Positions 1 through 30,470 of a stretch of DNA of 32,000 bases are shown here, in pieces; within the stretch, counting starts at the first letter, position 1; each line of letters starts with the position of its first letter. Origin of the DNA: Wolbachia endosymbiont of Cimex lectularius (GTDB taxonomy: Bacteria; Pseudomonadota; Alphaproteobacteria; Rickettsiales; Anaplasmataceae); NCBI RefSeq assembly GCF_000829315.1, contig NZ_AP013028.1, positions 1,140,001 to 1,172,000 of the forward strand, given 5' to 3'. The translations under genes and the position numbers were made by a program. The notes beneath the pieces are model-generated. The model had not been told where the DNA came from, did not search any database, and saw only the letters and a list, made by a program, of their open reading frames with translations.

Positions 1-57
1 ACAGATGATAGTCCTCTCCTTCATTTCTCTCCTGTTACGAAGATTTTAAACAGGTTC
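1..57 (+). mobile_element. 3'-terminal 57 bp of an IS5-family insertion sequence (fourth copy, opposite orientation to the other three), cut by the window edge
   Basis: Bases 1-57 are the exact reverse complement of 8513-8569 (end of the transposase ORF plus the 18-bp terminal inverted repeat GAACCTGTTTAAAATCTT). TAA follows at 58-60, the same T(T/A)A triplet type that flanks the complete copies. Confidence 0.85.
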
Positions 58-275
58 TAAGAAAGAAGGGGAAATAGAAAAAACAACTAATAAAATAGGA
101 ACTTCAACTGAAAAAGCTACAAGGAATAATAGTGAAAAGCCGGAGCCAGGTAATAACCAAATTTGTGGCGATGCAACTGCTAAACTTATGGAAGAAAGGA
201 ACTCAGCAAACCAAAAGAAAAGTTTTACAAGAGGTTAGTATGGTCTCCCACCCCAGCGTTACCAAGCGCTGGGCG

Positions 276-7952: not shown

Positions 7953-8509
7953 GTTAGATCTCTCGCATATCAAACCAGCTTTGGCATATGCGAAAAAACT
8001 ACTTGACAAATCTCACCAGCCCCATTATTATAAAGTTGGAGGTATTTAGTTATCTTCATCTGTGCAGATTAAACGACAAGAGTATTATGGTTAGCGTTTT
8101 ATGTTTAATTTTTTGCACTATGTGCACTTCATGTCTTTATTAATTTTACCTAGATTTCTAGGTTTTTCCCTATACAAGCTGAAACGCGCTTATAAGTCGT
8201 TTAAGACAGTATAGTACGCCAATTTGCAGGATTAGAGAGTGAGCAACTTCTACCACGGGGCTCTTTTGTCTTTTTTTCTGCTTAGTAAGTTTCTTAGCGC
8301 TTAAGCTAAGGGTCTGTTGCAGTTTAAAAGTCGCTAAATTGCAGCGTTTAAGACTTAAAAAAACGCCAATACTGAAAATAGACAATGACCAGGGCTTCTT
8401 TTGCTTTTTTTCAGCCTTGAAACTCGTTAGCGCCGCATTAGCTATATCACATGGGATTGTGCAATGGATGCAGCTTAACATAAAAAGTTTGACTTTTTGA
8501 AATTTTTGG
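7953..8509 (+). repeat. R element copy R1: non-coding repeat with an internal sigma70-type promoter and two ~147-bp tandem subunits; its 3' side abuts IS copy 1
   Basis: Alignable by eye with 14924-15425 (same orientation), 10771-11106 (inverted) and 29143-29187 plus 30050-30470. Shared blocks: ACTACTTGACAAAT, TATCTTCA.TCTGTGCAGAT, CATGTTTAATTTTTTGCACTATGTGCAC, CAAGCTGAAACGCGCTTATAAGTCGTTTAAGAC, AAAAACGCCAAT, GGGGCT.CTTTTG.CTTTTTTT. Subunits begin at 8198 and 8345 (CGTTTAAGAC). Confidence 0.8.
8003..8031 (+). promoter_or_regulatory. Predicted sigma70 promoter inside R1 (TTGACA-N17-TATTAT), firing toward IS copy 1
   Basis: TTGACA at 8003-8008, exactly 17 nt spacer, TATTAT at 8026-8031. The -35 box and spacing are the same in all four R copies. 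Confidence 0.6.
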
Positions 8510-8512
8510 TTA

Positions 8513-9373
8513 GAACCTGTTTAAAATCTTCGTAACAGGAGAGAAATGAAGGAGAGGACTATCATCTGTAAGCTAGTGTTGAGCTTCCGCTCGCAATTTT
8601 TCCACAATCGCCTGCACTTTTCTAACCAGGCAAAAGAGCGTTCAACAACCCATCTTTTTGGCAATACGACGAAAGTGTGTAACTCACTTCGCTTTATTAC
8701 TTCAACAGTCGCACCAATGATAGCTTTTATTTGTGTTGCAAAATTTTCTCCTGTGTAGCCAGCATCAACCAGTATGTTTTTAACTTCAGAGAGGTTTGCT
8801 TTAGCATTTTCGACCATTTTCACAGCACTGCTACGGTCAGTTGCTTCTGCCGTTGTTACATAAATTGCATGTGGCAAACCTTGTGTATCAACTGCAATAT
8901 GGCGCTTTATCCCTGAAATCTTTTTACCTGCATCATAGCCTTTTTTTTTCAGCAGTATCTGCGTTTTTAACGCTTTGAGAATCAATTATACAAAAGCTAG
9001 TTTTCTCTTTCCGACCATTGCTGATACGGACCTCTCCAACTAATTTTTTTTAAGACTAATTCCAACAAGCTTGGCTCTTCTCCATTCTTTTTACTCCACA
9101 CTCGAAAATAGTAATATACGCTTTCCCATCTTGGAAAACCCTTTGGTAACATCCTCCACTGACAACCACTTTTTAAGACGTACAACACCCCACAAAATAC
9201 GTCATACAAATCAAGTTTTCTTGGTTTTGTTTTCTGCTTGCTACTCTCCAAAATTGGCCTGATTTTTTCAAACTGCTCTTGACTTATATTACTTGGATAA
9301 CTTTTCTGCATAGACACCTCATTATTAATCTATGCTTACTTTACCTCACATTTCCAAGATTTTAAACAGGTTC
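8513..9373 (-). mobile_element. IS5-family insertion sequence, copy 1 (861 bp; ISWpi1-like by recollection)
   Basis: Perfect 18-bp terminal inverted repeats GAACCTGTTTAAAATCTT (8513-8530 and 9356-9373). Direct TTA duplication at 8510-8512 and 9374-9376. Internal DDE transposase frames. Confidence 0.92.
8521..9317 (-). pseudogene. IS5-family DDE transposase of copy 1; the orfB frame is additionally broken by a 1-nt expansion of a homopolymer
   Basis: orfA (8997..9317, 106 aa) is identical to the other copies. The coding-strand A-run at 8941-8949 is A9 here versus A8 in copies 2 and 3. The frame that encodes IIDSQSVKNADTAEKK therefore ends as ...AEKKRL-stop, separated from GYDAGKKISGIKRHIAVD. 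Confidence 0.75.
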
Positions 9374-10388: not shown

Positions 10389-10616
10389 CACAACTGTACG
10401 AATATTGTGATTTGAGCCTACCACTAGGGTGTCATGCAAGTAGCTGGCACTGGCATCCAGGAATTTTATTAAGTTGGTGAGTATAAAAGTAGCTGTTTTA
10501 TGTTAAAATACGACGTTTTGATGATTATAGAAAGGCTGGATCCCAGTGTCGGAGCACTGGGATGACACCGTCTGTTACGCAAATTACCTGCTAATTGCAA
10601 TGTTCGTACAGTTGTG
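10389..10616. mobile_element. MITE-like non-autonomous element (228 bp) with terminal inverted repeats and a target-site duplication
   Basis: Left end CACAACTGTACGAATATTG. The right end reverse-complements to CACAACTGTACGAACATTG (18/19). Direct repeat CCAACGTC at 10381-10388 and 10617-10624. The interior is an extended imperfect palindrome with no ORF. Confidence 0.65.
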
Positions 10617-10632: not shown

Positions 10633-10765
10633 TTAGCTGTACGAGGGTTGTAATATGTAAACGATGTCGTTCCAGCGCGTGACGCTGGAATCTAGGAATT
10701 TTATCGAGTAGGTGAGCATAAAAGTTATGTTAAAATGCACCATTTTTATGGAAAGCTGGATCCCA
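10633..10765. repeat. Second, partial copy of the MITE-like/palindromic element
   Basis: GCTGTACGAGGGTTGTAAT resembles the left TIR. CTAGGAATTTTATCGAGTAGGTGAGCATAAAAGT...TATGTTAAAATGC...GAAAGCTGGATCCCAG parallels 10458-10545. Contains the palindrome TCCAGCGCGTGACGCTGGA. Confidence 0.55.
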
Positions 10766-10770
10766 GATAC

Positions 10771-11106
10771 AAGGCAAAAGAAGCCCCGTGGTAGCTAGTT
10801 ATTCACTATCTATCTTATAACATTGGCGTTTTTGATGTCTTAAACGACTTATAAGCGCGTTTCAGCTTGTATAGGTAAAAAAACAGAAGTTTTAAAAAGA
10901 CATGCAATGCACATAGTGCGAAAAATTAAACATGAGACGGCAAATATGCTAAGTTTTTTTGTCATTTAATCTGCACAGACTGAAGATAAATAATAACTCC
11001 AGTCTCATTATAAGGGGGTTGAAGGAATTTGTCAAGTAGTTTTTTTTGTTTCCATTGAATATATGCTTGGCGCTGCCAAAACTGATTTGTTATGCGAGAG
11101 ATCTAG
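10771..11106 (-). repeat. R element copy R2 (inverted orientation, one subunit only)
   Basis: The reverse complement aligns with R1, R3 and R4 from the head (TAGATCTCTCGCATAACAAATCAG...) through the promoter, the GCACTATGTGCA block and CAAGCTGAAACGCGCTTATAAGTCGTTTAAGAC to GGGGCTTCTTTTGCC. Confidence 0.8.
11007..11035 (-). promoter_or_regulatory. Predicted sigma70 promoter inside R2 with full consensus (TTGACA-N17-TATAAT), firing leftward, away from the folate operon
   Basis: The minus strand reads TTGACA (11035-11030), then 17 nt AATTCCTTCAACCCCCT, then TATAAT (11012-11007). Confidence 0.6.
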
Positions 11107-11127: not shown

Positions 11128-11156
11128 TTGACATCTAATAAGTCTATGAATAGTAT
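11128..11156 (+). promoter_or_regulatory. Candidate promoter of the folate operon (TTGACA-N17-TAGTAT)
   Basis: TTGACA at 11128-11133, 17-nt spacer, TAGTAT at 11151-11156. AAGGAG at 11178-11183 lies 8 nt before the ATG at 11192. Confidence 0.45.
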
Positions 11157-11191
11157 GAAATAGTTTTGTGTTAACTTAAGGAGTTATTATA

Positions 11192-11848
11192 ATGTTTATT
11201 CAATTACTTAATAGAGAACTAGATAGTTTGCATTTATTAAAACATCAGTTTTACCAATCATGGAATGAAGGAAATTTGAGTCTTGAAGCCCTACAAATTT
11301 ACGCTAAGGAATATTATCATCATGTTGCCGCATTTCCTCGTTATATTAGTGGTATACATTCTTTGTGCCCAAATCTGAAAATGCGACAAGTTTTGCTTGG
11401 TAATTTAATAGAAGAAGAACAAGGCGATGAAAACCATCCAGAGTTATGGCAACGTTTTGCTGAAGGGCTTGGTGTCTCACGATCCGATCTTCGTGAAGAT
11501 GCACAAATTAACGAGACACAAGAATTAGTTGATGGTTACTTTGATATTGTACGATCAGGCTTTGCAATGGGTCTTGGAGCTCTTTATGCTTATGAACGTC
11601 AAACTCCAGAGGTTTCTAAGTCTAAAATTGAAGGTCTGAAAAAGCATTATTCAATAGATGATGAGCGCTCTCTCCAATTTTTTACTGTTCACATGGATGC
11701 TGATGAATGGCACTCTGAGGAGTGTGCAAACCTTATTGCGGATTTAAATGAAGAAGAACAAGGGAAAGTTATGCAAGGTGCTAAAAAAGGAGCAAAGCTT
11801 TTATGGGGTTTTCTTGATGGAATGATGAACGCATATGCACATTGCTGA
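11192..11848 (+). CDS. CADD / PqqC-like haem-oxygenase-fold di-metal protein (CT610/NE1434-type pABA synthase candidate)
   Basis: 218 aa. LLKHQFYQSWNEGNLSLEALQIYAKEYYHHVAAFPRYIS, NLIEEEQGDENHPELWQRFAEGLG and DADEWHSEE resemble the TENA/THI-4/PqqC-CADD family. It is the first gene of a folate operon. Confidence 0.75.
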   Translation: MFIQLLNRELDSLHLLKHQFYQSWNEGNLSLEALQIYAKEYYHHVAAFPRYISGIHSLCPNLKMRQVLLGNLIEEEQGDENHPELWQRFAEGLGVSRSDLREDAQINETQELVDGYFDIVRSGFAMGLGALYAYERQTPEVSKSKIEGLKKHYSIDDERSLQFFTVHMDADEWHSEECANLIADLNEEEQGKVMQGAKKGAKLLWGFLDGMMNAYAHC

Positions 11849-11940
11849 GGGGTTTTCATCAATAAAGGGGGAAAATTTCTCTTGAGTAATTTGGTAAACT
11901 TCAGAAACATGTGGGTTTTTGTAAGCTAGAGAGTATAAAG

Positions 11941-12354
11941 ATGGGACTAGGTACAAAACTGTTATGTAACCTCCTTATCCAGGATTTACGGCTTTGGGTT
12001 CATTTAGGCTGTAGTACAGAAGAGAAGTTTCATTCCCAATTAGTGAGTATTAATGTTGATTTTACCTTTAAGTCTCCTCCTGTAGGGCTTATAACTGATC
12101 GGCTTGAAGACACTATCTGCTATCTGGAGGTAGTGCAGAGTATACAATCGCTTGCTCGAAGCAAGCAATTCAATTTAATCGAGCGTTTCACTCATGATGT
12201 ATATGTAACCATTAGTAACCTTTTGATGCAGAAAAGGCATATTATTTCTTCTATAAGAGTGACTACTCACAAAGTTGCACCACCCGTTCCCGATGTACAT
12301 GGGGGTGTTCTCTTCACCTATTACAATGCACTGCAAGAACAGGAAGATAACTAA
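11941..12354 (+). CDS. folB: Dihydroneopterin aldolase/epimerase (FolB/FolX family)
   Basis: The ORF track begins at GTG 11911; ATG 11941 gives a 137-aa protein of typical FolB size. IQDLRLWVHLGCSTEEK, ICYLEVVQSI and LIERFTHDV match the FolB pattern. The stop overlaps the next start (TAATG). Confidence 0.75.
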   Translation: MGLGTKLLCNLLIQDLRLWVHLGCSTEEKFHSQLVSINVDFTFKSPPVGLITDRLEDTICYLEVVQSIQSLARSKQFNLIERFTHDVYVTISNLLMQKRHIISSIRVTTHKVAPPVPDVHGGVLFTYYNALQEQEDN

Positions 12355-13652
12355 TGATTTATATTTCTATTGGCTCAAATATAGGAAATCGCCTTTCTAA
12401 TTTACAAAAGGCTGCTCAGTTACTAAAGGAGCGCTATTTTAAAGATCTAAAATCTTCGATTGTCTTAGAAACTAAGGCTATTTTACCAAATGGTGCTCCA
12501 ATTGAGTGGGACAAGCCATTTTTTAACATGGTTGTGTATGGAAATTGCTCTGTTTCTCCTGAAGAGTTATTAAAGGGCCTAAAACAAATCGAATGTGACA
12601 TTGGTCGTCCACAGATTCATGAAAAGTGGGCACCTCGTATTATCGACTTGGATATTTTATTATGGGATGATTTGACACTCGATACACCCTACCTTAAGGT
12701 TCCTCACCCAGAATTGTTGAGCAGACCATTTTTGCTTCACTTGATGGCAATGCTCAGCCCCATGGGTGATATTCCAACGACCAACAAAACGTTTGGTACT
12801 GTTGCTCACAACACTCCTAGCGTTCAAGACTGCTTTTTAAAGAGTTTTACGCTTTCACCAGAGCTTGTGGGAATTGTCAACGTCACTCCTGATTCATTTT
12901 CAGATGGTGGTCTCTATTATGAGACAGATCAAGCAACTAAGCAGGCATTGCAACTGGTATCAGATGGTGCAAGCGTAGTTGATCTTGGTGCTCAATCAAC
13001 AAGGCCTAGATCTTCGATGCAAACCCCAGAGGAGGAATATGCACGTTTAAAACCAGTACTTGATAATCTTAGTCATTATATGAAAGCTGGCGATATTAAA
13101 GTCAGTATTGATAGTTTCTGGCCGGATGTTATTTTAAAAGCTTTGGAATATTACAACATTGCTTGGATAAACGATGTTAAAGGAGATCTAGATGATAATA
13201 CCTTAAAAGCAATTGCTAGCGGTGAGTGTAGCATCGTTATTATGCATTCACTTTCCATACCACCACATAAAGACAACATTATTCCAGGTAACACTGACCC
13301 CATCAATACCATAAATCACTGGGCAGAGAAAAGCGTTGATAGATTACTAGCTCTAGGTTTTAATAAAAGCTCAATAATTATTGATCCTGGTATAGGTTTT
13401 GGAAAATCCCTATATCAGAATATCTGGATTTTGCGCAATATAGAAGCATTGCAAAGTTTCGGCTGCAAGGTTCTAGTGGGTCATTCTAGAAAGTCATTTA
13501 TTTCTTCTTTTTCTTCAGAATCTGCCTTTAACCGAGATTTAGAAACAATTTCTATGTCATCTGTATTACACAATAAGGTTGATTTCCTTCGAGTGCATAA
13601 TGTGCGCGATCACATGCGATTTTTTGTAGCCCAAGCTGCCTTACAGGGATGA
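12354..13652 (+). CDS. folKP: Bifunctional HPPK / dihydropteroate synthase (FolK-FolP fusion)
   Basis: 432 aa. The N-terminal half carries HPPK motifs (IGSNIGNR, PRIIDLDILLWD, VPHPEL). The C-terminal half carries DHPS motifs (GIVNVTPDSFSDGG, DLGAQSTRP, IIIDPGIGFGK, VGHSRKSF). Confidence 0.9.
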   Translation: MIYISIGSNIGNRLSNLQKAAQLLKERYFKDLKSSIVLETKAILPNGAPIEWDKPFFNMVVYGNCSVSPEELLKGLKQIECDIGRPQIHEKWAPRIIDLDILLWDDLTLDTPYLKVPHPELLSRPFLLHLMAMLSPMGDIPTTNKTFGTVAHNTPSVQDCFLKSFTLSPELVGIVNVTPDSFSDGGLYYETDQATKQALQLVSDGASVVDLGAQSTRPRSSMQTPEEEYARLKPVLDNLSHYMKAGDIKVSIDSFWPDVILKALEYYNIAWINDVKGDLDDNTLKAIASGECSIVIMHSLSIPPHKDNIIPGNTDPINTINHWAEKSVDRLLALGFNKSSIIIDPGIGFGKSLYQNIWILRNIEALQSFGCKVLVGHSRKSFISSFSSESAFNRDLETISMSSVLHNKVDFLRVHNVRDHMRFFVAQAALQG

Positions 13653-14143
13653 TGATTATCGGAGTTATGGCCGTTGATCCAAACGGGGTAATTGGAATAA
13701 ATAATGGATTGCCCTGGCATTATCCAAGTGAGCTGGAGCATTTTCGCCAGGTGACTGACAAACAAGTTATAGTTATGGGAAGAAAGACATTTGAAACCAT
13801 GCCTCAAAGCATATTGAAGGATCGTGTTCCTGTTGTTTTTTCTCGTAACAAGCTAAGTTTGTGTTTTAATAGAGGTATAAAATGTACTGTTGTTTCTTCT
13901 ATGCAAGAATTTCTATCAATTCAGAATAGTTGGAATTACTCCAAAATCTTCATGGTTGGTGGAGCACAGATAGCGCACCTTTTTTTAGAGCATAATCTAA
14001 TCTCAGAATTTATCATAACAGAAATCCACAAACCTTATAAAGGTGAAGTATATTTCAACTTAGCACTCCTTGATGGGTGGAATAAAACTATTCTCACCGA
14101 AACAAAAGATTATACTATATGCAGGCTAATATATGCAAGTTGA
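13649..14143 (+). CDS. folA: Dihydrofolate reductase
   Basis: 164 aa. GLPWHYPSELEHFRQVT, VIVMGRKTFE and MVGGAQI motifs. ATGA overlap with folKP. Confidence 0.88.
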   Translation: MMIIGVMAVDPNGVIGINNGLPWHYPSELEHFRQVTDKQVIVMGRKTFETMPQSILKDRVPVVFSRNKLSLCFNRGIKCTVVSSMQEFLSIQNSWNYSKIFMVGGAQIAHLFLEHNLISEFIITEIHKPYKGEVYFNLALLDGWNKTILTETKDYTICRLIYAS

Positions 14144-14876
14144 AGCAATTTACACCCACCGCGTTGAATGCGGTGAAACATTAGAGAAGATTCTTGATCG
14201 CTATGTTTCAAAATTATTGAGGGAGGAGGTTGTGCTTGCTATCACATCAAAAATCATTTCCGTTTGCCAAAAGCAAGTAGTTCACAAAACTGCCTGCTCT
14301 AAAGAAGAGCTGGTTAAAAGAGAAGCTGATGCGGTTGTTGATGTAGATTGCAATCCACATGGCATCTATTTGACAATTAAAGATGATATTTTAATTCCAT
14401 CTGCCGGCATTGACGAATCAAACGGTGATGAGGTGTATATTCTATATCCAAAAGATGTTCAGAAAACAGCTATATCAGTATGGAACTACCTAAGGACAAA
14501 ATTCTGCATAAAGCATCTTGGTATTTTGATTACAGATAGCAATATAGCACCTATGCGCCTTGGGGTTACAGGAATTGCTCTTGGTTGGTGTGGATTTGAG
14601 CAGCTTTATTCCTATGTAGGCAAGCCAGATCTTTATAGTAGGCCACTCCAGGTAACACAAATCAATCTTCTTGATGCGCTGGCAGCATCCGCTGTTTTAG
14701 TCATGGGAGAAGGGGCAGAACAAACGCCAATGGCAGTCATTAGAGATGTACCAAAAATCCGCTTCCTTACTCGTCCACCGACTATAGAAGAAGAGAGAAG
14801 TGTTAAGATATCGGTGGAAGAGGACCTTTATTCTCCTCTACTCATGAAAGCCCGATGGTTGAAGAACGTGGGATAA
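14133..14876 (+). CDS. CofE-like (F420-0:gamma-glutamyl ligase family, COG1478) protein; candidate non-canonical folylpolyglutamate/dihydrofolate synthase (FolC2, CT611-type)
   Basis: 247 aa. ITSKIISVCQ, LIPSAGIDESNG, ILITDSN and GIALGWCGF resemble the CofE family. Overlaps folA by 11 nt as the last gene of the operon. Confidence 0.7.
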   Translation: MQVEAIYTHRVECGETLEKILDRYVSKLLREEVVLAITSKIISVCQKQVVHKTACSKEELVKREADAVVDVDCNPHGIYLTIKDDILIPSAGIDESNGDEVYILYPKDVQKTAISVWNYLRTKFCIKHLGILITDSNIAPMRLGVTGIALGWCGFEQLYSYVGKPDLYSRPLQVTQINLLDALAASAVLVMGEGAEQTPMAVIRDVPKIRFLTRPPTIEEERSVKISVEEDLYSPLLMKARWLKNVG

Positions 14877-14923: not shown

Positions 14924-15425
14924 CGTTAGATCTCTTGCACAGCAAACCAATTTTGACACGCCATAAAACAAAAAAAACTACTTGACAAATTCTTTCAACC
15001 CCCTCATAATGAGATTGAGGCTATTATTTATCTTCAGTCTGTGCAGATAAAACGACAAAAAACTCAATGTATTTGGCGTCTCATGTTTAATTTTTTGCAC
15101 TATGTGCACTCCATGTCTTTATAAAACTTCTAGGTTTTTACCTAATATAAGCTAAAATGCGCTTGCTAAAGCATTTAAGACAATAAAAAACGCCAATTTA
15201 AAAGATAGATAGTGGATAACTAGCTAGCGGGGTTTCTTTTGCCTTTTGTCTGTTTAGTAAATTTCTTAACGTTTAAATTTAGATCAGTTGCGGTTTAAAA
15301 GCAGCTAGATTAGACGTTTAGAATAAAAAAACGCCAATTTATAAAGTTAATATAAATAACTAGCCACCAACGGGGCTCCTTTTGCTTTTTTTTCTATTTA
15401 ATAAATTTCTTAAATATTTATAACT
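14924..15425 (+). repeat. R element copy R3 (two ~141-bp subunits), directly upstream of the terminase start
   Basis: Aligns with R1, R2 and R4. Subunits begin near 15171 and 15313. A short palindromic element (15436-15490) follows and runs into the terminase RBS. Confidence 0.8.
14982..15010 (+). promoter_or_regulatory. Predicted sigma70 promoter inside R3 (TTGACA-N17-CATAAT)
   Basis: TTGACA at 14982-14987, 17-nt spacer AATTCTTTCAACCCCCT, CATAAT at 15005-15010. Confidence 0.55.
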
Positions 15426-15570
15426 AAAGTAGTATCTTGGATTCCAGTGTCCGCTACTTGGATGACAAGAAAAGGCTACTTGGATAACAGGAGGCTAATA
15501 TGGAAAACATAAACTTTCTAAAATTCATTGAGTTATGCTTTAAAACAGTGATGCCGGGGTGTGAGTATAA

Positions 15571-16430
15571 GAACCTGTTTAAAATCTTCGTAACAGGAGA
15601 GAAATGAAGGAGAGGACTATCATCTGTAAGCTAGTGTTGAGCTTCCGCTCGCAATTTTTCCACAATCGCCTGCACTTTTCTAACCAGGCAAAAGAGCGTT
15701 CAACAACCCATCTTTTTGGCAATACGACGAAAGTGTGTAACTCACTTCGCTTTATTACTTCAACAGTCGCACCAATGATAGCTTTTATTTGTGTTGCAAA
15801 ATTTTCTCCTGTGTAGCCAGCATCAACCAGTATGTTTTTAACTTCAGAGAGGTTTGCTTTAGCATTTTCGACCATTTTCACAGCACTGCTACGGTCAGTT
15901 GCTTCTGCCGTTGTTACATAAATTGCATGTGGCAAACCTTGTGTATCAACTGCAATATGGCGCTTTATCCCTGAAATCTTTTTACCTGCATCATAGCCTT
16001 TTTTTTCAGCAGTATCTGCGTTTTTAACGCTTTGAGAATCAATTATACAAAAGCTAGTTTTCTCTTTCCGACCATTGCTGATACGGACCTCTCCAACTAA
16101 TTTTTTTTAAGACTAATTCCAACAAGCTTGGCTCTTCTCCATTCTTTTTACTCCACACTCGAAAATAGTAATATACGCTTTCCCATCTTGGAAAACCCTT
16201 TGGTAACATCCTCCACTGACAACCACTTTTTAAGACGTACAACACCCCACAAAATACGTCATACAAATCAAGTTTTCTTGGTTTTGTTTTCTGCTTGCTA
16301 CTCTCCAAAATTGGCCTGATTTTTTCAAACTGCTCTTGACTTATATTACTTGGATAACTTTTCTGCATAGACACCTCATTATTAATCTATGCTTACTTTA
16401 CCTCACATTTCCAAGATTTTAAACAGGTTC
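15571..16430 (-). mobile_element. IS5-family insertion sequence, copy 2 (860 bp), inserted in codon 24 of the terminase gene
   Basis: The same 18-bp terminal inverted repeats. TAA duplication at 15568-15570 and 16431-16433. Confidence 0.92.
15579..16374 (-). CDS. IS5-family DDE transposase (orfA 16054..16374 plus orfB frame to 15579); the fusion needs a +1 change of frame at an A8 run
   Basis: orfA reads ...LVLKKISWRG...EREN-stop. The +1 frame from the A8 run (T8 on the plus strand, 16101-16108) reads LVGEVRISNGRKEKTSFCIIDSQSVKNADTAEKKGYDAGKKISGIKRHIAVD...LVDAGY...VVERSFAWL with no stop to 15579. This gives the full D, D, E triad regions. Confidence 0.8.
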
Positions 16431-17080
16431 TAACGACTATCAGTATGTAAAAGTCATAGCAGACAGGCTTGAAGCAGCAAATGTTGGCAAAATGAGGCGA
16501 ATAATATTCAATATGCCTCCGCGCTCAATGAAATCCCTGTGCGTCAGTGTTGCATGGCCGCATGGATACTTGGCAATCAGCTAACCGCGAGAATAATAGT
16601 TGCAAGCTATTCTCAGCGGCTGAGCGAAAAACACTCGCTCGATACAAGGTGCGTGATGCAATCGGATTGGTATAGAGAGCTGTTTCCAGAGGTAGAGCTA
16701 CCCACAGAACAAAACACTAAATACAAATTTCAAACAGTGCAGAGAGGATACAGAATCGCAACATCTGTTGGTGGAACATTAACCGGCGAAGGTGGTGATT
16801 TCATTATTGCGGATGATCCACTGAGCTCCACTCAAGCTTTGAGTGAAACTCTTAGAAAACGTGCTACAAACTGGTTCGACCAGACTTTAGTAAGCAGATT
16901 CAACAATAGAAAAAAAGGAGTCATCGTTCTTGTGATGCACAGACTTCACTTGGAAGACTTAACTGGGCACCTCCTCTCCAAACCGAAAATCATATGGCAC
17001 CATATTAGTTTACCAATGATATATGAAAATAAGGAGATCATTTATTCAATCAAAAAACCAGCGCCTACTTTTCTTGTTCC

Positions 17081-17148
17081 GGTCATCCAAGTAACTAAAG
17101 ATGGGCACACCAGCAATAAACCAGTATCAGCTACTTACATGACACCAC
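17081..17148. repeat. Short palindromic element embedded in frame inside the terminase reading frame
   Basis: GGTCATCCAAGTAAC ... CAGCTACTTACATGACACCAC. The second arm matches AGCTACTTACATGACACCAC at 30565-30584 over 20 nt. Both arms are inverted versions of the GGTGTCATGCAAGTAGCTGG motif at 10428-10447. Confidence 0.55.
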
Positions 17149-17812
17149 CTGCAAGGATATACTCAAGAGAAGAAGGTCAGCCGCTATACCCCCTAGATGG
17201 AGGAAGGGAAGAAGTTGAGATGATAAAGGCTGAACTTGGAAGCTATGCTTTTGCTGCGCAATATCAACAAAACCCTCTGCCGCTTTCAAGTGGTATAATC
17301 AAGCTAGAGTGGCTGAAGCGCTATAGAAATTTTCCTGATGACCTCTCGCATGTAACCTAGAGCTGGGATACTGAGGTTTCAACGAGCAACTCTAGCAACT
17401 TCAGCGTCTGCACCACTTTGGCAAAAGTGGGCAATAAGTTTTATTTACTCGATGTATATCGTGCAAAACTTGAGTATCCAAAACTTAAAGAGCAAGTTCT
17501 GTCACTAGCTGCAAGATGGACACCACACGCAGTTTTAATTGAAGCAAAAACAAGCGGTCAGCAATTGGTACAAGAGCTGAAGGCAAACAGTGATTTACCC
17601 GTTATTGAAATAGTACCGCATGATGACAAATTCGCTCGATTCCATCAGATTGTTCCGATTATAGAGTCTGGAAAAGTTTTTCTGCCGCACCAAGCGATAT
17701 GGCTCAATGATTTTGAGTATGAAATTTTAATGTTCCCAGAAGCACATCACAATGACCAAGTCGACAGCACCGTGCAATATCTGCAGTGGATGAGAGAAAG
17801 TACCTCCAGGGT

Positions 17813-17871
17813 CGCAACTATACGAACATTGTGATTTGAGCCTGCCAGGAGGATGTCATCCAAGTAGTTGG
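17813..17871. repeat. Left-end fragment of the MITE-like element, supplying the last codons and the stop of the terminase ORF
   Basis: CGCAACTATACGAACATTGTGATTTGAGCCTGCCAGGAGGATGTCATCCAAGTAGTTGG parallels 10389-10447 (CACAACTGTACGAATATTGTGATTTGAGCCTACCACTAGGGTGTCATGCAAGTAGCTGG). Confidence 0.6.
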
Positions 17872-17873
17872 TA

Positions 17874-19262
17874 TTAACATTTACCAATTGGATAATCACC
17901 AGTGAAACAAGCATCACAGTATTGCGGTGCTATGTTATTGCGCTTCTCTTCCTTAACAGCCTGATATAGCCCATCAATACTTAGGAAGGTCAAACTATTC
18001 ACTCCTATACTTGCCTTTATTTCCTCTATGGATTGATTTGCAGCAATTAAATCCTTGCGCTCTGGCGTGTCGATTCCATAAAAGCAAGAGTATTTGATTG
18101 GTGGACTTGAAATTTTTAAGTGAATTTCTCTTACTCCTGCATCTTTTAGCATAACTATTATGCTTCTGAGTGTACTGCCACGTACTATACTGTCATCTAT
18201 TAAAACTATGTTTTTACCCTTTAGAATGTGCTTATTAGCGTTGAATTTTAACTTTATTCTGACTTTACGTACTTCAGCGGTTGGTTGTATAAAAGTTCTT
18301 CCTATATAATGATTACGAATTATTCCCAGTTCCATAGGTAACCCTGAATGCTTTGCATATCCAATGGCTGCAGGTATTCCAGAATCAGGTATTGGTACAA
18401 TCATATCCACATTGTTTTTTGCTGGACTCTCCTCTGCAAGCGTTTTCCCTATTTCTTTTCTCATATCGTATATAGACCTACCTTCCATTATGCTATCTGG
18501 TCTTGAGAAATAAACGTATTCAAAAATACAAAAGCTCGATTTTTGCTGCGCAAAAGGAAATGCTGAAGTTAGGTGGCCATTACGATCAATAGTGACTAAT
18601 TCACTTGGTTCTATTTCTCTAATAAACTCTGCATTTACTATATCAAAAGCACAAGTCTCAGATGCAAGCACGTAAGAGCCGTTTAACTTTCCTAAAGCAA
18701 GGGGTCTGATTCCTGCTGGATCGCGCACTCCGATCACTACTTCTTGGTTAATTGCAACAAAGGAATAAGCGCCTTGTATCTGCTTTAATGAACATATAAA
18801 ACTCTCTAGAAAGCTATCTTTTGTATTGGTTTCTACTAAACGTACTACCACTTCTGTATCGATATCCGATTGAAAAACGCACCCCTGTTTAATTAATTGC
18901 TCGCGTATTGGAAAAATATTAATTAAATTACCATTATGTGCTATAGCAAAATCTCCAAACTTACTGCTTTTGCCAAGCATGGGTTGTGCTCCGACATTAC
19001 TGCCACTTGTTGAGTATCGAACGTGGCCTATTGCATAATCTCCAGGCAAGGATTTCTTTATTGCATCTACGTCATCAAACACACTGCTCACTTGACCTTG
19101 AAAATGGTAAGAATGCAACTTATCGTTATAACTTGTCACTACACCAAAAGACTCCTGACCTCTATGTTGCAAAGCATGAAGACCTAATATGGAGTCAAAA
19201 GCAGCGTCTTTATTGTAGCTTATACCAAATACTCCGCACTCTTCGTGCATTCCATCAAGCAT
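17874..19262 (-). CDS. purF: Amidophosphoribosyltransferase
   Basis: 462 aa. N-terminal ECGVFGI (catalytic Cys after a short leader), a PRPP-binding VLIDDSIVRGST loop, and Cys-rich C-terminal ligands (CFYGIDTP, YCDACFTGDYP). Confidence 0.92.
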   Translation of the reverse strand: MLDGMHEECGVFGISYNKDAAFDSILGLHALQHRGQESFGVVTSYNDKLHSYHFQGQVSSVFDDVDAIKKSLPGDYAIGHVRYSTSGSNVGAQPMLGKSSKFGDFAIAHNGNLINIFPIREQLIKQGCVFQSDIDTEVVVRLVETNTKDSFLESFICSLKQIQGAYSFVAINQEVVIGVRDPAGIRPLALGKLNGSYVLASETCAFDIVNAEFIREIEPSELVTIDRNGHLTSAFPFAQQKSSFCIFEYVYFSRPDSIMEGRSIYDMRKEIGKTLAEESPAKNNVDMIVPIPDSGIPAAIGYAKHSGLPMELGIIRNHYIGRTFIQPTAEVRKVRIKLKFNANKHILKGKNIVLIDDSIVRGSTLRSIIVMLKDAGVREIHLKISSPPIKYSCFYGIDTPERKDLIAANQSIEEIKASIGVNSLTFLSIDGLYQAVKEEKRNNIAPQYCDACFTGDYPIGKC

Positions 19263-29142: not shown

Positions 29143-29187
29143 AACAGAAACAAAAAAACTACTTGACAAATCTCACCAACCCTCTTA
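29143..29187 (+). repeat. R element copy R4, 5' part (promoter -35 and spacer), separated from the rest by IS copy 3
   Basis: AAACAAAAAAACTACTTGACAAATCTCACCAACCCTCTTA. TTGACA at 29163-29168 and a 17-nt spacer. The IS starts after the first two bases (TA) of the expected -10 box. Confidence 0.75.
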
Positions 29188-29990
29188 GAACCTGTTTAAA
29201 ATCTTCGTAACAGAGAGAAATGAAGGAGAGGACTATCATCTGTAAGCTAGTGTTGAGCTTCCGCTCGCAATTTTTCCACAATCGCCTGCACTTTTCTAAC
29301 CAGGCAAAAGAGCGTTCAACAACCCATCTTTTTGGCAATACGACGAAAGTGTGTAACTCACTTCGCTTTATTACTTCAACAGTCGCACCAATGATAGCTT
29401 TTATTTGTGTTGCAAAATTTTCTCCTGTGTAGCCAGCATCAACCAGTATGTTTTTAACTTCAGAGAGGTTTGCTTTAGCATTTTCGACCATTTTCACAGC
29501 ACTGCTACGGTCAGTTGCTTCTGCCGTTGTTACATAAATTGCATGTGGCAAACCTTGTGTATCAACTGCAATATGGCGCTTTATCCCTGAAATCTTTTTA
29601 CCTGCATCATAGCCTTTTTTTTCAGCAGTATCTGCGTTTTTAACGCTTTGAGAATCAATTATACAAAAGCTAGTTTTCTCTTTCCGACCATTGCTGATAC
29701 GGACCTCTCCAACTAATTTTTTTTAAGACTAATTCCAACAAGCTTGGCTCTTCTCCATTCTTTTTACTCCACACTCGAAAATAGTAATATACGCTTTCCC
29801 ATCTTGGAAAACCCTTTGGTAACATCCTCCACTGACAACCACTTTTTAAGACGTACAACACCCCACAAAATACGTCATACAAATCAAGTTTTCTTGGTTT
29901 TGTTTTCTGCTTGCTACTCTCCAAAATTGGCCTGATTTTTTCAAACTGCTCTTGACTTATATTACTTGGATAACTTTTCTGCATAGACAC
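29159..29990 (-). CDS. IS5-family DDE transposase of copy 3 (orfA 29670..29990 plus orfB frame), with an altered C-terminus from a 1-nt deletion
   Basis: Identical to copy 2, except that CGTAACAGGAGAG is CGTAACAGAGAG at about 29206-29217. The last residues LLLRRF-stop become CYEDFKQVLRGLVRFVK-stop, and the ORF runs out through the inverted repeat into flanking DNA (stop at 29159). Confidence 0.65.
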
Positions 29991-30046
29991 CTCATTATTA
30001 ATCTATGCTTACTTTACCTCACATTTCCAAGATTTTAAACAGGTTC
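29188..30046 (-). mobile_element. IS5-family insertion sequence, copy 3 (859 bp), inserted into the -10 hexamer of the R4 promoter
   Basis: The same 18-bp terminal inverted repeats. TTA duplication at 29185-29187 and 30047-30049. Joining the flanks restores TTGACA-N17-TATAAT. Confidence 0.92.
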
Positions 30047-30049
30047 TTA

Positions 30050-30470
30050 TAATGATACTAAAGCTATTTGTTTATCTTCGCAATCTGTGCAGGTTAAAGA
30101 CAAAAAACTTAGGGTATTTGGCGTCTCATGTTTAAATTTTTGCACTATGTGCACCTCACGTCTTTTTAAAACTTCTGGTTTTTACCTATACAAGCTGAAA
30201 CGCGCTTATAAGTCGTTTAAGACAGTATAGAACGTCAAATAGACAAGGGAGAATTTGAATACTAGCTGCCCTAGAGTTTTTTTGCCTTTTTTTCCGCTCA
30301 GTAAAATTCTTAACGTTTACAGTTTTGGTTAGTTGCATTTAAAAGTAGCTGAATCGTAGCGCTGAGAATAAAAACGCCGATATTTGAGGTACATATAAAT
30401 AATTAGCCACCAACGGGGCTTCTTTTGCTTTTTTCTCCATTTGGTAAGTTTCTTAAATATTAAAGCAATT
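30050..30470 (+). repeat. R element copy R4, 3' part (conserved blocks plus two subunits)
   Basis: TAATGATACTAAAG...TATCTTCGCAATCTGTGCAGGT...CATGTTTAAATTTTTGCACTATGTGCAC...CAAGCTGAAACGCGCTTATAAGTCGTTTAAGAC...GGGGCTTCTTTTGCTTTTTTC aligns with R1-R3. Confidence 0.8.

Follow-up and report, generated by a model that had tools for sequence, protein, structure and literature searches.

An intact folate-synthesis operon with a probable CADD-type p-aminobenzoate synthase in the Wolbachia endosymbiont of Cimex lectularius

Overview

[quoted passage not shown] We consider it very likely that these genes constitute a single folate operon in which p-aminobenzoate (pABA) is derived from CADD, FolC2 serves as a ligase, and the product is used in the bacterium's own one-carbon metabolism. 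The cluster itself is not new, as its proteins are already named by NCBI and the Wolbachia version was drawn by de Crécy-Lagard et al. 2007 (Fig. 5A) and Adams et al. 2014 (Fig. 2). The additional details reported here are small, namely that the metal-selector positions of CADD hold a Tyr/Phe hybrid, that the gene order comes in three variants, that CADD has decayed in three lineages of Wolbachia, and that the operon is flanked by a 290-bp inverted repeat.

Operon organization and conservation

The five encoded proteins are exact matches to consecutive wCle entries, including the wCle dihydrofolate reductase (DHFR). An earlier sequence-only reading had described five tightly packed or overlapping folate genes, and all of them were recovered together with their junctions: a 92-bp spacer separates the CADD gene from folB, the last base of the folB TAA codon is also the A of the folKP ATG codon, and the overlaps amount to 4 bp between folKP and folA (ATGA, 13649-13652) and 11 bp between folA and folC2 (14133-14143). 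Family profile scores exceeded the curated cut-offs for all five genes in HMM searches, and the family assignments previously made by eye for the first and last genes hold. Pairwise comparison with seven Wolbachia genomes gave dN/dS values of 0.09-0.35 across the operon, with the CADD gene being the most constrained (0.09-0.16), and all five genes are thus under purifying selection. The open reading frames, family membership, catalytic residues, fold, selection and synteny were observed directly, and the enzymatic activities of the wCle proteins are assigned by analogy with their homologues.

Table 1. Features of the wCle folate locus, with positions numbered from the start of the window
Feature	Position	Strand	Remarks
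Left copy of a ~290-bp dispersed Wolbachia repeat	10764..11051	-	inverted pair with 14966-15252
Candidate sigma-70-type promoter, TTGACA-17-TAGTAT	11128..11156	+	10/12 consensus matches; predicted from sequence
Shine-Dalgarno AAGGAG	11178..11183	+	8 nt before the CADD start codon; conserved in Wolbachia alignment
CADD, probable self-sacrificing p-aminobenzoate synthase	11192..11848	+	218 aa, BAP00454.1; TIGR04305, AF2 fold
FolB, dihydroneopterin aldolase	11941..12354	+	137 aa, BAP00455.1; PF02152, TIGR00526; annotated start ATG at 11941
FolK-FolP fusion	12354..13652	+	432 aa, BAP00456.1; TIGR01498 + TIGR01496
FolA, dihydrofolate reductase	13649..14143	+	164 aa, BAP00457.1; PF00186
FolC2, COG1478-type folate gamma-glutamate ligase	14133..14876	+	247 aa, BAP00458.1; TIGR04132
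Right copy of the ~290-bp dispersed repeat	14966..15252	+	inverted pair with 10764-11051

The CADD-type p-aminobenzoate synthase

The first gene product, previously described as CADD/PqqC-like, belongs to the CADD subfamily (TIGR04305, 333.8 bits with the cut-off at 200; full-length alignment, 2-212 of 212) and matches the Chlamydia trachomatis protein CT610 (PDB 1rcw) with E = 2e-45. Structure prediction and a residue check, both proposed by the sequence-only reading, yielded a CADD fold with the six dimetal ligands and the conserved Tyr and Lys. The AF2 model (pLDDT 93.7) is a heme-oxygenase-like helical bundle that superimposes on 1rcw and 8vag with a TM score of 0.93 and an rmsd of 1.5 A, and its best PDB match is CT610, ahead of PqqC. 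The ligands E75, H82, E135, H167, D171 and H174 correspond to E81, H88, E142, H174, D178 and H181 of CT610, while Y21, Y37 and K145 align with Y27, Y43 and K152; each of these residues is shared by 119 or 120 of the 120 closest homologues, and Y21, Y37 and K145 are invariant among them. In the CADD family, a Tyr/Tyr pair at the metal-selector positions is associated with a Mn/Fe center and a Phe/Phe pair with Fe/Fe. The wCle protein carries a hybrid pair, Tyr134/Phe163, that 119 of the 120 homologues and every proteobacterial locus retain, whereas Chlamydiae have Tyr/Tyr.

In CT610, which complements pabA, pabB and pabC mutants (PMC4161248), Tyr27 and Lys152 are sacrificial and Tyr43 is essential, and the sacrificial role of Tyr and Lys in both CADD and NePabS was established by mutagenesis and LC-MS/MS (PMC11965152). 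By analogy, the wCle protein probably makes pABA from its own Tyr and Lys. No pabA, pabB or pabC was found among the open reading frames of at least 90 aa in the 32-kb window, a scan that set aside only IS5 transposase halves and reading frames nested in or overlapping known genes.

Other enzymes of the operon

FolB exceeds the cut-offs of PF02152 (60.9 versus 31.8 bits) and TIGR00526 (55.1 versus 45.05) but misses that of the TIGR00525 equivalog (60.9 versus 72.15), and the FolX model gives only 32.6 bits. Its residues E28, Y61, E81 and K111 align with Glu22, Tyr54, Glu74 and Lys100 of Staphylococcus aureus DHNA, which are the catalytic residues of that enzyme. The corresponding chlamydial gene, CT614, complements folB (PMC4161248). 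In the FolKP fusion, both equivalog models are passed within one open reading frame, by the FolK domain at residues about 3-135 (TIGR01498, 100.3 versus 54.1 bits) and by the FolP (dihydropteroate synthase) domain at about 172-425 (TIGR01496, 236.1 versus 162.6 bits), and the protein matches the bifunctional HPPK-DHPS structures 4pzv and 3mcm over its full length (E about 1e-49). The FolK half of the Chlamydia fusion did not complement E. coli folK (PMC4161248). FolA is a clear DHFR (PF00186, 110.4 versus 25 bits).

The last gene had been called COG1478/CofE-like, and its score of 399.3 bits on TIGR04132 (cut-off 350; residues 1-243 against 241 profile positions) indeed places it in the folate-linked subfamily of COG1478, with matches to the CofE structures 2g9i and 2phn at E = 1e-15. 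Of the 80 loci fetched, roughly 40 have this gene in a cluster with fol genes. The family assignment of the sequence-only reading stands, although its wording that such a protein is proposed to replace FolC was too cautious, as an E. coli folC mutant was rescued by CT611 in a complementation test (PMC1971073). Since a separate folC has been reported in Wolbachia (PMC8116671, PMC4674097), FolC2 is perhaps not the sole glutamate ligase of wCle and may share or split this role.

Transcription and flanking repeats

Because the genes overlap and one conserved promoter-like site precedes them, they are probably transcribed as one message, pabS(CADD)-folB-folKP-folA-folC2, from the candidate sigma-70-type promoter, whose first base is the position at which the sequence-only reading began the locus. 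In 10 of 12 Wolbachia loci, the -35 hexamer and the spacing are retained upstream of CADD. Promoter-like sites of this type are no more frequent in the region than expected from shuffled sequence. No terminator-like site was found 3' of folC2.

The repeats on either side of the locus are regarded as context rather than as an established part of the operon. The two copies share 86% identity over 291 nt, and each contains an outward-facing promoter-like site (TTGACA-17-TATAAT at 11035..11007 on the left and TTGACA-17-CATAAT at 14982..15010 on the right). The same pair is present at five other loci (L001, L005, L014, L003, L004).

Proposed pathway

It is plausible that FolB converts 7,8-dihydroneopterin to 6-hydroxymethyl-7,8-dihydropterin, which would be pyrophosphorylated by the FolK domain and joined to pABA by the FolP domain to give dihydropteroate. 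FolC2, a CofE-fold ligase apparently recruited to folate metabolism, would then add glutamate to form dihydrofolate and probably polyglutamates, and FolA would reduce dihydrofolate to tetrahydrofolate. The pABA would be supplied not from chorismate but by CADD, acting as a heme-oxygenase-like dimetal oxygenase that uses O2 and a reductant. The enzyme is predicted to cleave its own Tyr21 side chain (Tyr27 in CT610) to provide the aromatic scaffold and to take the amine from its own Lys145 (Lys152 in CT610), and therefore one CADD molecule would be spent per pABA.

As noted in the sequence-only reading, neither folE nor a canonical folC occurs among the scanned open reading frames of at least 90 aa, and no source of dihydroneopterin is encoded in the window. 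Wolbachia was described as lacking both folE and folE2 (PMC1971073); folE is listed as present in the annotation of a flea Wolbachia (PMC12211885). The operon most likely serves the one-carbon metabolism of Wolbachia itself, and a purN gene is located 8 kb away.

Alternative interpretations

A role of the operon mainly in the provision of folate (vitamin B9) to the bedbug, in the manner of the wCle biotin and riboflavin pathways, appears unlikely. The relevance to nutritional provisioning suggested in the sequence-only reading fits the status of wCle as a B-vitamin mutualist (PMC4659472) and the intact, constrained state of the operon, and one paper asserts, from genome content alone, that a related bedbug Wolbachia provides folate (PMC7662661). 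The link to the host is nevertheless weak, as cured bedbugs fed only riboflavin and biotin performed much like those given all B vitamins in published experiments (PMC4659472), which speaks against the bedbug needing folate from its symbiont. The same operon is retained in reproductive-parasite and nematode Wolbachia, and it is therefore not specific to nutritional mutualists. In addition, a single-turnover synthase costing one 218-residue protein per folate would be a poor basis for bulk export, and the front end of the pathway is unaccounted for. It is highly improbable that the operon is instead a decaying remnant without current function in wCle. Folate genes are eroding in Rickettsia (PMC5615194), and CADD is degraded in three Wolbachia, namely that of Onchocerca ochengi (L010), isolate C61_2 (L001), with frameshifts and Tyr21 replaced by Cys, and wStur (L009), with a single stop codon and the loss of two ligands. 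FolC2 is truncated beside IS copies at another locus (L021). However, the five wCle open reading frames all retain their full length and their catalytic residues, and their dN/dS values are well under 1.

There is hardly any likelihood that the terminal genes act outside folate synthesis, the first as an oxidase of the PqqC type or of another heme-oxygenase-like kind, or as an apoptosis effector such as CADD was first described to be, and the last as a true F420 CofE. Such functions are suggested by the original GenBank name of BAP00454.1 (pyrroloquinoline-quinone synthase), by the name coenzyme F420:L-glutamate ligase given to some Wolbachia homologues of the last gene, and by Pfam, which assigns both only to broad families. 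Yet the folate-specific subfamily models are passed, whereas the PqqC equivalog (TIGR02111, 50 bits against 240) and the CofE equivalog (TIGR01916, 103.3 against 180.65) fall below their cut-offs; the sacrificial Tyr and Lys are invariant among the nearest homologues, both genes are embedded among fol genes, overlapping or closely spaced, across many phyla, and no pqq or cof genes occur among the scanned open reading frames of the window. A recent horizontal transfer of the cluster from Chlamydiae into wCle is extremely improbable, even though the gene set equals that of C. trachomatis ct614-ct610 and the locus lies amid IS5 copies, dispersed repeats and remnants of phage terminase. The GC and GC3 contents of the operon equal those of adjacent housekeeping genes, identity to the chlamydial proteins is low (40-43% for CADD and 49-55% for FolC2), and the gene order differs. 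The close relatives L001 and L005 have no IS5 copies at the corresponding sites. In neighbor-joining trees of FolC2 and CADD, a comparison of the kind that the sequence-only reading called for with each gene, the Wolbachia proteins form single clades beside uncultured Alphaproteobacteria and separate from Chlamydiae.

Comparison with known folate clusters

The wCle operon is the same cluster as that published for Wolbachia in 2007 and 2014, in another strain and with no essential difference; wCle, the catalytic residues and the flanking repeats were not analysed in those studies. The description of the operon as Chlamydia-type is apt for its content, as C. trachomatis has the same five families, including the FolK-FolP fusion, in one same-strand cluster, folB(ct614)-folKP(ct613)-folA(ct612)-folC2(ct611)-ct610(CADD), and the catalytic residues and fold of CADD are shared. 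It does not extend to gene order, with CADD being last in Chlamydia, as also at the chlamydial loci L060 and L062, but promoter-proximal in wCle. The order CADD-folB-folKP-folA-folC2 was found at 14 Wolbachia loci, including those of nematode strains, among the 80 loci fetched. The second metal-selector position also differs (Phe163 in wCle versus Tyr170 in CT610), CADD identity is only about 36-45%, and the wCle cluster resides in a member of the Alphaproteobacteria.

In Rickettsia and Tisiphia, the cluster comprises the same families (59-68% identity for CADD and 55-68% for FolC2) in the order folB-folKP-folA-CADD(pqq)-folC2, with CADD located between folA and folC2 rather than first, and some loci lack CADD or folB. 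NE1434 of Nitrosomonas europaea (NePabS) is a self-sacrificing Fe/Fe pABA synthase and, with CT610, one of the two proteins for which pABA formation and rescue of pabABC mutants were demonstrated. It shares all six ligands with wCle CADD, as well as the Tyr and Lys that are sacrificed; unlike the latter, it is not clustered with fol genes and has a Phe/Phe selector pair (F148/F177). PDB entry 9pj4, the third 4-aminobenzoate synthase match of wCle CADD (E = 4e-44), is taken to be this enzyme from its Tyr25/Lys159 register. Finally, CofE of Archaeoglobus fulgidus (2phn/2g9i) shares the Pfam family PF01996 and a conserved C-terminal core with wCle FolC2, from which it differs in its equivalog family and in a context of F420 rather than folate.

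Operon organization and promoter-like site

All five open reading frames (ORFs) that the sequence-only reading had placed at 11192-14876 are present on the plus strand in the Wolbachia endosymbiont of Cimex lectularius (wCle). Their proteins are exact matches, in five of five cases, to the consecutive wCle GenBank entries BAP00454.1-BAP00458.1, the first and last of which are named 'CADD family putative folate metabolism protein' and 'putative folate metabolism gamma-glutamate ligase' in RefSeq. Only the first gene stands apart, with a 92-bp spacer after it; FolB and FolKP have base 12354 in common, and the FolKP/FolA and FolA/FolC2 pairs overlap by 4 and 11 bp, respectively. A TTGACA-17-TAGTAT site begins at base 11128, which the sequence-only reading gave as the start of the operon; the -35 hexamer and spacing of this site are kept 5' of the CADD orthologue in 10 of 12 Wolbachia loci; an AAGGAG ribosome-binding site recurs with this conserved promoter-like site in Wolbachia loci. 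Promoter-like sites are not enriched across the region as a whole, and neither a tRNA nor an Rfam riboswitch was found 5' of the operon.

Assignment of the five proteins

The first gene, assigned by eye to the CADD family, indeed belongs there (TIGR04305, 333.8 bits against a cut-off of 200); identity with PqqC was rejected, as the PqqC equivalog model gave only 50 bits against a cut-off of 240. Over its full length the protein aligns with crystallized CT610/CADD from Chlamydia trachomatis and with another 4-aminobenzoate synthase of known structure (E = 2e-45 to 4e-44), and its AlphaFold model (pLDDT 93.7) superposes on CT610 with a TM-score of 0.93 and an rmsd of 1.5 Å, better than on PqqC. 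When the essential residues, as defined in PMC11965152, were mapped onto the wCle protein, the sacrificial Tyr27, the essential Tyr43 and the amine donor Lys152 were found as Tyr21, Tyr37 and Lys145, respectively, and the six metal ligands as E75, H82, E135, H167, D171 and H174; among the 120 nearest homologues, no more than one departs from wCle at any of these positions. CT610 and its Nitrosomonas europaea counterpart NE1434 (NePabS) substitute for pabABC, using a Tyr and a Lys of their own chains to make pABA (PMC4161248, PMC11965152). At the two positions reported to decide between Fe/Fe and Mn/Fe use, CADD has Tyr/Tyr and NePabS has Phe/Phe (PMC11965152). This selector pair is Tyr134/Phe163 in wCle, as in all proteobacterial homologues that were examined, and Tyr/Tyr in Chlamydiae MAGs; given the hybrid pair, the metal preference of the wCle enzyme is therefore not readable from its sequence.

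For the fifth gene, described previously as CofE-like, membership in COG1478 was upheld by the folate-linked model TIGR04132 (399.3 bits, cut-off 350), but the CofE equivalog score was below its cut-off (103.3 versus 180.65). The FolK and FolP equivalog models are both passed inside one ORF, and FolA passes the DHFR model. FolB is above the Pfam and domain model cut-offs and below the equivalog cut-off; its FolB model score is twice its FolX model score, and at the positions of the catalytic Glu, Tyr, Glu and Lys of the S. aureus aldolase it has the same four residues. Complementation has been reported of folB by CT614, of folP by the C. trachomatis operon (both PMC4161248) and of folC by CT611 (PMC1971073). 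By analogy, the enzymes of the wCle operon most likely have the activities of CT614, CT611, CT610 and NE1434, and, judging from these tested homologues, the operon would turn 7,8-dihydroneopterin, self-made pABA and glutamate into tetrahydrofolate.

Genomic neighbourhood

The remaining gene content of the window is consistent with Wolbachia, with ankyrin genes, nadK, fabD, gpmI, purF, purN and ribF, and the window also holds insertion sequences and phage remnants. An inverted pair of copies of a ~290-bp dispersed Wolbachia repeat (86% identity) brackets the folate operon. Each repeat copy has a near-consensus TTGACA-17-TATAAT promoter-like site at its start, directed away from the operon, and a T-run at its end. 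The pair also flanks the operon in loci L001, L003, L004, L005 and L014, and was not found in more distant Wolbachia loci. A structured RNA gene was rejected as a reading of this repeat, since it had no Rfam match at gathering or at E <= 1 and no conserved structure, RNAalifold returning only a 4-bp hairpin.

Where 300-nt blocks of the three IS5-family copies were compared, they were 100% identical; the transposase is split into two ORFs in each copy, and the first two, in direct orientation, bracket an ankyrin gene together with the folate operon. An old composite transposon formed by these two copies (~8.5 and ~15.6 kb) was rejected: in the related L001 and L005 the copies are absent at the corresponding sites and the gene neighbourhood is the same, and the copies are therefore recent insertions. 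Just 3' of the operon, a phage terminase large subunit is split in two ORFs and resembles a prophage remnant; L001 and L005 have fragments of it at the corresponding position. The intergenic DNA to either side of the operon also contains scattered short GC-rich palindromic units of the type ggatcccagtg...cactgggatgaca.

Coordinates of the operon genes, of surrounding elements in the window and of degraded genes in other Wolbachia loci
Feature	Position	Strand	Remarks
CADD	11192-11848	+	
FolB	11941-12354	+	
FolKP	12354-13652	+	
FolA	13649-14143	+	
FolC2	14133-14876	+	
~290-bp repeat, left copy	10764-11051	-	
~290-bp repeat, right copy	14966-15252	+	
~290-bp repeat, further copies	7993-8288; 30046-30290		
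~290-bp repeat, partial copies	15326-15404; 30370-30431		
IS5-family copies	about 8488-9350; 15545-16400; 29160-30000	-	
IS end-like match	1-82		
Terminase large subunit ORFs	16539-17360; 17418-17834	+	
GC-rich palindromic units	10391-10465; 17815-17889; 10520-10570; 15430-15470		
Degraded CADD, L001	5060-5712		C61_2, close wCle relative; frameshifts, sacrificial Tyr to Cys; MAG assembly errors possible
Degraded CADD, L010	5324-5761		Wolbachia of Onchocerca ochengi (wOo); 35% identity, stop codon, Tyr and Lys lost
Degraded CADD, L009	4270-4917		wStur; one stop codon, two ligands lost
Rearranged fol genes with truncated FolC2, L021	7214-10006; 8001-8567		Wolbachia of Psylliodes chrysocephala; FolC2 residues 56-244 only

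Pathway completeness and proposed host provisioning

No FolE or canonical FolC was found among the scanned window ORFs of 90 aa or more, in agreement with the sequence-only reading, and pabABC is likewise missing from them. Among the 82 fetched loci, the FolC motif had no match, and a motif scan for FolE-like ORFs gave a single match, in a Chlamydiales locus. Wolbachia were reported to be without folE and folE2 (PMC1971073), and folE is listed in a flea-Wolbachia annotation (PMC12211885). Two papers report a folC gene in Wolbachia, also for strains without the operon (PMC8116671, PMC4674097), which suggests that canonical FolC coexists with FolC2.

A tentative and rather unlikely reading is a folate pathway shared between host and symbiont, with no bacterial GTP cyclohydrolase I, in which host 7,8-dihydroneopterin would be taken up and pABA would come from a suicide enzyme with a Rickettsiales-specific Tyr/Phe selector, the independent decay of CADD, and of no other gene of the operon, in wOo, C61_2 and wStur then marking lineages that draw on outside pABA as well. 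Uptake from the host is proposed because insects and nematodes make the triphosphate of dihydroneopterin with their own GCH1. If such a shared pathway were real, the folate pathway that symbiosis surveys score as 'incomplete' would actually work.

The suggested relevance of the operon to host nutrition fared poorly, as riboflavin and biotin alone matched all B vitamins in cured bedbugs (PMC4659472). The operon is retained also by Wolbachia other than nutritional mutualists, and bulk folate export would be costly with a single-turnover pABA synthase, with which folate output is paid for stoichiometrically in protein.

The folate operon finding is correct and mainly a re-discovery of what was already known: CT610 homologues clustering with folABKP in Chlamydia and Wolbachia were described, and the cluster drawn, by de Crécy-Lagard et al. 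2007 (PMC1971073), the Wolbachia organization is included in Figure 2 of Adams et al. 2014 (PMC4161248), and Stone et al. 2025 count Wolbachia as one of the bacteria that have putative self-sacrificing pABA synthases (PMC11965152). In practice the finding is useful because it connects insect-symbiosis surveys with the folate-enzymology literature, wCle being a model nutritional mutualist. The wCle folate pathway was scored incomplete by the authors of the bedbug-feeding study (PMC4659472) and Wolbachia folate synthesis was scored complete in PMC7662661; both surveys rest on the classical fol genes only, and folate enzymology already accounts for the pABA step (CADD) and the glutamylation step (FolC2). 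The operon also offers plausible anti-Wolbachia drug targets: DHPS and DHFR, together with an enzyme family that animals lack.

Selection, gene order and ancestry

In pairwise comparisons of wCle with seven other Wolbachia, dN/dS is 0.09-0.35 for all five genes, with the strongest constraint on CADD (0.09-0.16). In three other Wolbachia lineages CADD alone is degraded, with FolB, FolKP, FolA and FolC2 full length in each (see table). A truncated FolC2 is present in the Psylliodes chrysocephala symbiont, where two IS copies part it from the remaining four genes, themselves inverted.

A one-genome-per-species scan gave 363 loci with FolC2 relatives, 80 of which were fetched. Some 35 more loci, ranging from Cardinium to Patescibacteria, have FolC2 without another fol gene within 8 kb, and the FolC2 family extends well beyond the five-gene operon. 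Lone FolC2-family genes that are 46-67% identical (L016-L030, L065, L069 and L075-L079, none with another fol gene within 8 kb) occur in lineages including Cardinium, Francisellaceae, Legionellales and Patescibacteria.

A recent transfer of the operon from Chlamydiae was rejected on base composition and neighbour-joining (NJ) trees. GC and GC3 of the operon are the same as in the adjoining housekeeping genes, and Wolbachia FolC2 and CADD each form one clade adjoining uncultured Alphaproteobacteria; the Chlamydiae clade is separate, and such a transfer is therefore not supported. Three gene orders were seen in the fetched loci. CADD-folB-folKP-folA-folC2 is common to 14 Wolbachia loci, nematode (wOo, Dirofilaria) and insect strains among them. 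CADD follows folA and precedes folC2 in Tisiphia and Rickettsia-like MAGs, as it does in several further Proteobacteria, and it is last in Chlamydiae. The description of the wCle operon as Chlamydia-type thus holds for the gene set but not for the gene order: the Chlamydia operon comprises the same five families, with CADD last there and first in wCle.
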